From a virus (taxonomy: Duplodnaviria > Heunggongvirae > Uroviricota > Caudoviricetes): a stretch of 5,832 bases of DNA. The number at the start of each line of letters is the position of its first letter. The first letter of the stretch is position 1. The notes under the pieces are model-generated. The model saw only the letters and a program-made list of their open reading frames with translations. It had not been told where the DNA came from and searched no databases. The stretch is from the IMG/VR virus record IMGVR_UViG_2534681772_000006, positions 1 through 5,832 of that record; one strand, given 5' to 3'. Below are positions 499 to 632 of the stretch, piece by piece. Position numbers and translations under genes: made by a program.

Positions 499-521
499 GC
501 TTTTACCTTTCGGCAGGCAAT

Positions 522-541
522 AAAAAAGCCGCAGTAGCGGC
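522..541 (-). terminator. Candidate rho-independent terminator downstream of the MuF-like gene
   Basis: On the minus strand: GCCGC-TACT-GCGGC (5-bp all-GC stem, 4-nt loop; plus coordinates 541..528) immediately followed by TTTTTT (527..522). It lies about 90 nt after the MuF stop at 633 and 23 nt before the next start codon at 498. Confidence 0.45.
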
Positions 542-632
542 CATTATTTCCTCTTGGACATAGCTATTTTCAGTAGTGCAATCATTAAGCAACCAAAAAT
601 CAACACTAATCCCAGAGACCATAAAACCTCAA

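Follow-up and report, generated by a model that had tools for sequence, protein, structure and literature searches.

The stretch of viral DNA analysed here (5,832 nt in total, hereafter the window) carries part of a phage late operon with head genes on its minus strand, as identified from the ORF list and Pfam matches. The genes comprise a Gp49-family gene (5400-5020), the small terminase (4914-4381), the large terminase (4433-2907), the portal gene (2907-1372, PF06381) and a head morphogenesis gene of the MuF / SPP1 gp7 minor head type (633..1451; Pfam PF04233 with E = 2.9e-14, PHROG 324 'head morphogenesis', TIGR01641). The TGA stop codon of MuF occupies positions 635-633 and is separated by a gap of 134 nt from the ATG (498-496) of a DUF2213 gene (Pfam PF09979), whose intact homologue of 408 aa matches PHROG 2229 'head maturation protease' with E = 9e-173. 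The leader of DUF2213 (499..518, minus strand) contains the Shine-Dalgarno sequence AAAGG at 510-506, 7 nt before the ATG, and is kept as GAAAGGTAAAnnCATG in relatives, a conservation that is partly due to our search pattern. Only codons 1-93 of DUF2213 are present (219..498), as the gene is cut at 218/219 by an IS3-family element, and the truncation noticed in a reading of the bare sequence (the sequence-only reading) is thereby explained. Both ends of the window (1-218 and 5427-5832) are IS3-family ends in the same orientation, with the terminal sequence TGAACCGCCCCGGG..., which we take to be IS629-like; they bracket a phage fragment of 5.2 kb. The reciprocal junction was found at positions 1-350 of another contig (IMG/VR 2534681772_000005, L097), where the other half of DUF2213 lies beside the other IS end with an apparent 3-bp TTC duplication. 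The second IS copy in the window is located 26 nt upstream of the Gp49-family gene and parts it from the lysis genes and the antiterminator gene Q of intact relatives. Since the operon is cut by IS elements on both sides, the window copy of the terminator described below is probably an inactive relic.

The uninterrupted region is present in 20 of 5,426 complete E. coli genomes at ≥95% identity. An intact homologue (L001), identical to the window over the aligned segment from MuF to DUF2213, lies in E. coli strain TW10590 (NZ_CP035850, region 2,759,572-2,772,853). Here a Q-family antiterminator gene precedes, in this order, holin, endolysin, Rz-like lysis gene, Gp49, small terminase, large terminase, portal, MuF and the gap, after which come DUF2213, 'cement protein Gp24', the major capsid protein and the neck and tail genes; all share one strand. 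Searching 50,697 phage records with the region by Megablast gave no match, and relatives were reached only via protein searches and a DNA pattern; about 110 related loci were compared in this way. We noted two peculiarities in the annotation of the upstream genes. The RefSeq name of the portal gene (window 1372-2907, L001 4594-6129; PF06381/DUF1073) differs between genomes, being either 'anti-CBASS protein Acb1 family protein' or 'DUF1073 domain-containing protein'; an NCBIfam scan of the portal yielded only a sub-threshold match to TIGR01555 and gave no basis for the Acb1 label. The longest MuF ORF comprises 272 aa and starts within the 3' end of the portal gene with an overlap of 80 nt (window 1372-1451); PGAP calls MuF as 228 aa with a start 52 nt past the portal stop (L001 6129-6182).

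Within the gap lies a terminator-like hairpin, GGCCGC-UACU-GCGGCU, on the minus strand (527..542). The stem core (541-528, GCCGC-UACU-GCGGC) is built from five G/C pairs between 541-537 and 532-528, to which a G542·U527 wobble can be added, and closes a loop of 4 nt (UACU). Directly abutting the stem is a U-tract (519..527, with T527-T522, A521 and T520-T519), and the conserved tail GCC(TG) comes next, at 518-514; in every homologue the tract is made up of T5-6 and then A. The GC-only stem of 5 bp, the 4-nt loop and the six T of the sequence-only reading are thus present as described, and RNA folding, proposed there as a check, gives -10.6 kcal/mol for the hairpin alone (16 nt, z = -3.2) and -12.2 kcal/mol for a 36-nt stretch with the flanking A/U extension. 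Stem length and loop are within the range known for intrinsic terminators (about 5-14 bp), at its short end. A d'Aubenton-Carafa-type score of +32.6 was obtained, which is indicative only and was calculated with ViennaRNA energies.

With only five G/C pairs in the stem, a chance hairpin lacking any function had to be considered, and a lenient scan of the window indeed yielded 10 terminator-like sites against 5.8 expected. The strict motif (5 G/C pairs, loop of 3-8 nt, T6 within 1 nt) has a single occurrence in the window, and only 3 out of 2000 dinucleotide-preserving shuffles contain it, counting either strand. The hairpin is the top-ranked terminator-like site of the window in a consensus scan and the best such site in 13 kb of the intact L001 prophage, and its conservation in dozens of contigs with diverged flanks (see below) effectively refutes an origin by chance. 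The sequence therefore supports the view that this hairpin, with every feature of an intrinsic terminator, is far from a chance occurrence. In an Rfam search over 400..760 the best match was AaHKsRNA82 with 24.1 bits against a gathering threshold of 51.4, and all matches had E ≥ 0.16; weak matches to isrK and other sRNA families, none near threshold, were discarded as generic terminator resemblance. Both the MFE and the centroid fold of the 134-nt gap retain the hairpin, with upstream structure sparing its 5' arm, and neither shows a competing antiterminator pairing such as a leader-peptide attenuator would have. We also rejected a bidirectional terminator, for which the plus-strand tail (CATTATTTCC) is poor and a convergent gene is missing.

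The position of the hairpin between the MuF stop and the next start codon was given correctly by the sequence-only reading; the gap itself is not empty, as it holds a conserved ORF of 30 codons. This ORF (544..636, minus strand) starts with an ATG at 636-634 that overlaps the MuF stop (ATGA), ends with a TAA at 546-544, only 1-2 nt before the hairpin, and encodes a peptide (GRAVY 1.49) made up of one hydrophobic helix that ends in a basic C-terminus. PGAP leaves it uncalled, and the RefSeq annotation of identical prophages omits it likewise. The reading frame is kept in 16 distinct nucleotide variants from E. coli, Pluralibacter, Enterobacter and metagenomic prophages, with pS of 0.4-0.8 against pN of 0.07-0.3 (pN/pS about 0.15-0.4) and 15, 6 and 22 variable columns at the first, second and third codon positions, respectively. 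An exact look-up in a protein collection showed that variants of the peptide have been called as genes on hundreds of contigs, and the other reading frames of the gap are not conserved among relatives. Judged by the kept frame, the mostly synonymous changes, these gene calls and the unconserved other frames, the small ORF is a real gene under purifying selection. Its G+C content of 34.4% compares with 48.4% for the phage part of the window and ranks among the lowest 0.4% of 93-nt windows, a value to be read with the fact that genes for hydrophobic peptides are AT-rich in any case.

A simple scan, which gives a weak negative, found no sigma-70-like promoter in or near the gap or in the MuF 3' end. 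Together with the overlap of its ATG and the MuF stop this makes the small gene look co-expressed with the late operon rather than autonomous, and the ATGA overlap suggests translational coupling to MuF. A -1 frameshift fusing MuF to the peptide appeared unlikely, as inspection by eye revealed no X XXY YYZ slippery heptamer at AGAAAATGA. In its length (30-33 aa), single hydrophobic helix and basic C-terminus the peptide resembles Hol-Tox and ComI, which are small membrane peptides of the single-pass type, and one source labels a 44-aa version 'putative holin-like toxin'. However, all scores stay below the curated cut-offs: for Hol-Tox (PF16935) the window peptide reaches 12.9 bits and the best relative 20.9 bits (E = 3.4e-4) against a cut-off of 23.3, and for ComI (NCBIfam) 13.9 bits were obtained against a cut-off of 55. 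As matches between transmembrane helices are often spurious, we regard both resemblances as leads only.

We then compared the junction between MuF and DUF2213 in relatives. For a sample independent of the hairpin, 36 loci were taken from a genome collection by a MuF protein search. In 16 of them the two genes abut or overlap (gap of -46 to +22 nt), and none of these 16 has a terminator-like site at the junction; Klebsiella phages with a gap of 3 nt likewise have no hairpin. In the remaining loci the two genes are 51 nt to 2.7 kb apart, with unrelated ORFs in between, and the cassette of hairpin and U-tract was found in this sample only where a gap or an insertion exists. MuF and the head protease gene thus abut in about half of the relatives, and the abutting relatives without a hairpin indicate that the head module in itself does not include the hairpin. 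A second sample was collected with a DNA pattern that comprised only the U-tract tail and the DUF2213 leader and excluded the hairpin. All 37 viral contigs found in this way carry a hairpin of the same design directly upstream of the pattern. A DUF2213 protein search added four further loci, three of which have the hairpin; the fourth, a remote partial match (L109), has none.

According to what lies upstream of the hairpin, the loci can be grouped into four classes. Class A carries the 30-aa ORF, as in the window, and class B a version of 33 aa with its stop codon inside the hairpin loop. In class C a diverged MuF ends 7-20 nt from the hairpin and no small ORF is present, whereas class D contains other small cargo genes, such as ORF5 of Edwardsiella phage GF-2. 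Overall, the distance of the hairpin to the upstream stop varies from -6 to about 20 nt in relatives. In three loci with a MuF 88-92% identical to that of the window (L054, L064 and L100) the small ORF is still located at the MuF stop, and extra cargo ORFs of 52 aa, 115 aa and 62 + 60 aa, respectively, are placed between it and the hairpin. This arrangement implies that the small ORF belongs with MuF and that the hairpin closes a variable slot. The cargo ORFs match no Pfam family and only PHROG families of unknown function. A particularly clear case is provided by Pantoea, where one locus (L004) differs from two others (L005/L006) by an insertion of ~590 bp at the MuF stop, consisting of a promoter-like site (TTGGCA-17-TAATAT), an ORF and the same cassette, and followed by a different ribosome-binding region. 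Insertions at the junction were noted in L004, L007, L008, L021-L024, L027, L028, L035, L038, L041, L043, L049, L054, L064, L076 and L100, among them an IS-like transposase on the opposite strand (L021) and ORFs of 650-830 aa (L024 and L027). By this comparison of gene orders the MuF/head-protease junction is an insertion hot spot across Proteobacteria. The 5' end of DUF2213 is itself mosaic: most relatives (L003, L015, L041 and others) possess an N-terminal extension of the protease, MPVHQKDGKWYWG...AEEVERAAYANGY, over the first ~45 codons, which is largely deleted in the lineage of the window and absent in L056.

These data bear on both explanations offered by the sequence-only reading. The suggestion that the gene downstream of the hairpin is an independently transcribed insertion is refuted, as DUF2213 follows MuF in essentially all relatives, with the cement and major capsid genes next; it is the conserved neighbour of MuF and opens the protease-cement-capsid block; the inserted and variable DNA, i.e. 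the small ORF or other cargo, lies upstream of the hairpin instead. The other suggestion was attenuation, by which the hairpin would tune the levels of terminase, portal, MuF and peptide against those of protease-scaffold, cement and major capsid protein. A terminator-shaped element inside a co-oriented head operon is what such a model calls for, the short stem would probably make termination incomplete, and the stop codon beside the stem would render its efficiency dependent on translation. Yet the polarity is wrong, since, by established capsid stoichiometry, far more copies of protease/scaffold, cement and major capsid protein are required than of terminase, portal and MuF, and relatives with abutting genes have the same head module and do not need the element. 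Moreover, the same cassette occurs in unrelated contexts outside the head genes, and polymerase modified by the Q antiterminator encoded upstream is expected to ignore the hairpin. An effect of an inserted gene on its neighbors is not without precedent, as the P22 'ant moron' may, according to one proposal, influence the levels of the tailspike encoded downstream of it (PMC2629481), but on balance we consider attenuation unlikely.

The check for conservation of the hairpin at this position in related phages, which the sequence-only reading had asked for, showed that it is kept, with changes that preserve its pairs. Among ten distinct 6-bp hairpins all 60 of 60 cells are paired. Three stem pairs never change. 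Of the other three, the basal one occurs as G-C, G·U or A-U, the third one as U·G, C-G or U-A, and the fifth one as G-C or A-U; the loop differs at each of its four positions. When the partner strand was slid by 1-3 columns as a control, pairing dropped to only 20-63%. A shuffle control was moderate, as 26-31 of 500 shuffles attained values as high as those observed, and covariation is modest, with double changes in two pairs. Pairs were counted on an ungapped alignment of the 6-bp hairpins, as MAFFT had put the window hairpin one column out; three further sequences with a 7-bp stem (GGCUGCC-N4-GGCGGCC) were folded only and left out of the count. Fold energies across relatives range from -6.8 to -14.9 kcal/mol, the weakest value belonging to a single relative. 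As the changes in the stem keep the pairing while the loop drifts, the alignment indicates that selection acts on the structure of the hairpin rather than on its sequence identity.

The cassette is not confined to this junction. A search with 60 nt of the common variant gave matches in 34 phage records and 32 E. coli genomes. The copies that we inspected are 94-97% identical over 32-37 nt, and only the hairpin, the U-tract and the ATTGCC(TG) tail are covered. The consensus of the family is ACAGGYCRC-N4-GYGRCC-T5-6-ATTGCC (~35 nt), and the shared form can be written as ACAGGTCGC-N4-GCGGCC-TTTTTTATTGCC(TG), with unrelated flanks; the tail TTTTTTATTGCC is present in all four copies described here. 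In Salmonella phage ES18 (L110, 2082-2113) the cassette is located right after gene 3, between large terminase and portal, and was annotated by the depositors as 'terminator, putative' (AY736146, regulatory feature 2082-2103). In the E. coli LF82 prophage (L111, 2501-2532) it is found right after a hypothetical gene of 61 aa, between lysis and terminase genes. Enterobacter phage CobraSix (L112, 1501-1537) has it after gp74, just downstream of a putative antiterminator gene, and here the tail GCCTG runs directly into the 5' end of a tRNA-Arg gene. The fourth copy is that at the end of the promoter-ORF-cassette insertion of Pantoea (L004, 4375-4405). Each of the four is situated right after a small gene of unknown function.

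The presence of near-identical cassettes with unrelated flanks in at least five contexts, and of mosaic joints exactly at the cassette edges, could also be explained by a mere recombination linker, a short shared exchange site without any function at the RNA level. Such a site would not require that pairing be kept through stem changes as the loop drifts, and we regard this explanation as quite improbable; the roles of linker and terminator are not exclusive and may coexist. Another explanation is a role in RNA stability or in the leader, in which the hairpin would guard the 5' or 3' end of an mRNA or free the ribosome-binding site of DUF2213. Consistent with this, the hairpin is placed at a constant distance of ~37 nt from the DUF2213 ATG in most enterobacterial relatives, whatever lies upstream, and hairpin plus leader are 83-91% identical between lineages against 50-56% for the flanking coding DNA, although the search pattern prescribed 27 positions of the leader and thereby inflates its conservation. 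Terminator hairpins can stabilise upstream mRNA (PMC11696848). On the other hand, the copies in ES18, LF82, CobraSix and Pantoea L004 have no DUF2213 leader and are each located just past a stop codon, and a stabiliser needs no abutting U-tract, yet T5-6 is found in every copy seen. A candidate mini-hairpin masking the Shine-Dalgarno sequence (UUGCCU/AGGUAA in the DUF2213 leader) was no better than shuffles (z = -0.3 to -0.9). A stability or leader function is hence an explanation to which we give little credence.

The explanation that we favour, with a probability of roughly 60%, is that of a portable Rho-independent terminator which closes an accessory-gene (moron) slot in a Q-antiterminated late operon and which is read through during lytic growth and stops other transcription. 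Cassettes of this type would spread among temperate enterobacterial phages, each at the 3' end of a small accessory gene, and the hairpin would mark the downstream edge of a slot reaching from MuF to the head protease, which in the window holds only the 30-aa gene. We assume from gene order and annotation that the late operon depends on Q. As in lambda, where Q leads to read-through of terminators in lytic growth, Q-modified RNA polymerase would pass the hairpin, and a ribosome ending at the stop codon of the small ORF, 1-2 nt from the stem, may additionally block its formation. Q read-through and masking by the ribosome together would mean that transcription of the capsid genes is not limited in lytic growth. 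A polymerase without Q and without a closely following ribosome would stop at the hairpin, on transcripts coming from accessory-gene promoters or from spurious starts in the lysogen; the protease and capsid genes would be insulated in this way, and accessory transcripts would gain a defined and stable 3' end. We infer the act of termination, the read-through with Q, the masking by the ribosome and the insulating role from these comparisons.

The masking by ribosomes has a well-studied counterpart in lambda tR2, at which a stop codon 5 bp upstream cuts termination from ~90% to <10%, as the terminating ribosome occludes the 5' arm; 10-15 nucleotides have to be free, and termination peaks only at spacings beyond 30 bp (PMC4824070). 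With the stop codon 1-2 nt from the stem in the window, and within the loop in class B, a translated transcript should therefore pass. The cassettes of class C, which have no accessory gene in the slot, mean that the element is not simply 'the moron's terminator'. A related reading, possible at best, sees the cassette as a portable joint, i.e. as a short stretch of homology for swapping cargo into late operons that is also a terminator and, in the small-ORF lineage, is gated by translation. The list of phages and prophages sharing it is in line with such a joint and includes ES18, the P22-like LF82 prophage, CobraSix, GF-2-like myophages, and Pantoea and E. coli prophages. With the stop codon in or against the stem, the terminator of the small-ORF lineage would be active only on untranslated transcripts.

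For annotation, our analysis means that a 134-nt 'intergenic' gap shared by at least 20 complete E. coli genomes holds a real small membrane-peptide gene missed by PGAP, as judged from its codon-level conservation, and that the terminator in the gap is a possible landmark for an accessory-gene slot. With regard to phage biology, the comparison reveals a hot spot for cargo genes at the MuF/protease junction, and a near-identical cassette across unrelated phages bears on the question of how morons are acquired and how late-gene expression is spared in the process. Current concepts are unchanged by these findings; their value lies in a clear comparison of relatives and in offering a terminator whose supposed masking by ribosomes can be put to the test.

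Several known systems are comparable to the locus described here. In phage Mu the lys operon reportedly ends after F/G and the operon of the I protease/scaffold starts at P_I (Marrs and Howe; Margolin et al.), which places a transcription boundary exactly between MuF-type and protease/scaffold genes, as in our case. The downstream unit of Mu has a C-dependent promoter, however, and no promoter fits into the 37 nt between the window hairpin and the ATG; the module itself does not call for such a boundary, as relatives without a gap show. The lambda-like Q-operon terminators such as tR2 also consist of a short G+C stem followed by TTTTTTATT and are located downstream of a Q-family antiterminator. 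With its ACAGGCC...GGCCTTTTTATTT sequence tR2 has a similar look, although the stem in the window is shorter.

The concept of morons is said to go back to Juhala and Hendrix and to cover lambdoid and other temperate phages. Like these elements, the cassette is associated with extra DNA between genes that are adjacent in relatives, with a terminator at the end, an atypical G+C content and a hot spot of insertion. Published criteria for morons comprise their own terminator, atypical G+C content and location in insertion hot spots (PMC2920897; PMC2629481). By the definitions in these two papers the Pantoea L004 insertion with its promoter-like site, ORF and terminator is, on the evidence of its sequence, a textbook moron. 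The window differs in that no promoter was detected, that the small ORF overlaps the MuF stop and that the terminator is also found with an empty slot (class C). The closest counterpart is the putative terminator of ES18. It has nearly the same sequence, ACAGGTCGC-TACG-GCGGCC-TTTTTTATTGCCTG, and likewise lies right after a small gene of unknown function within the terminase-portal-MuF part of a late operon, but is situated between large terminase and portal rather than between MuF and protease, and the window copy is a diverged variant (GGCCGC-UACU-GCGGCU); by the records both are putative. The element at the MuF/protease junction is thus of an ordinary kind, namely a moron-associated or late-operon intrinsic terminator, and the small gene in front of it is newly recognised.
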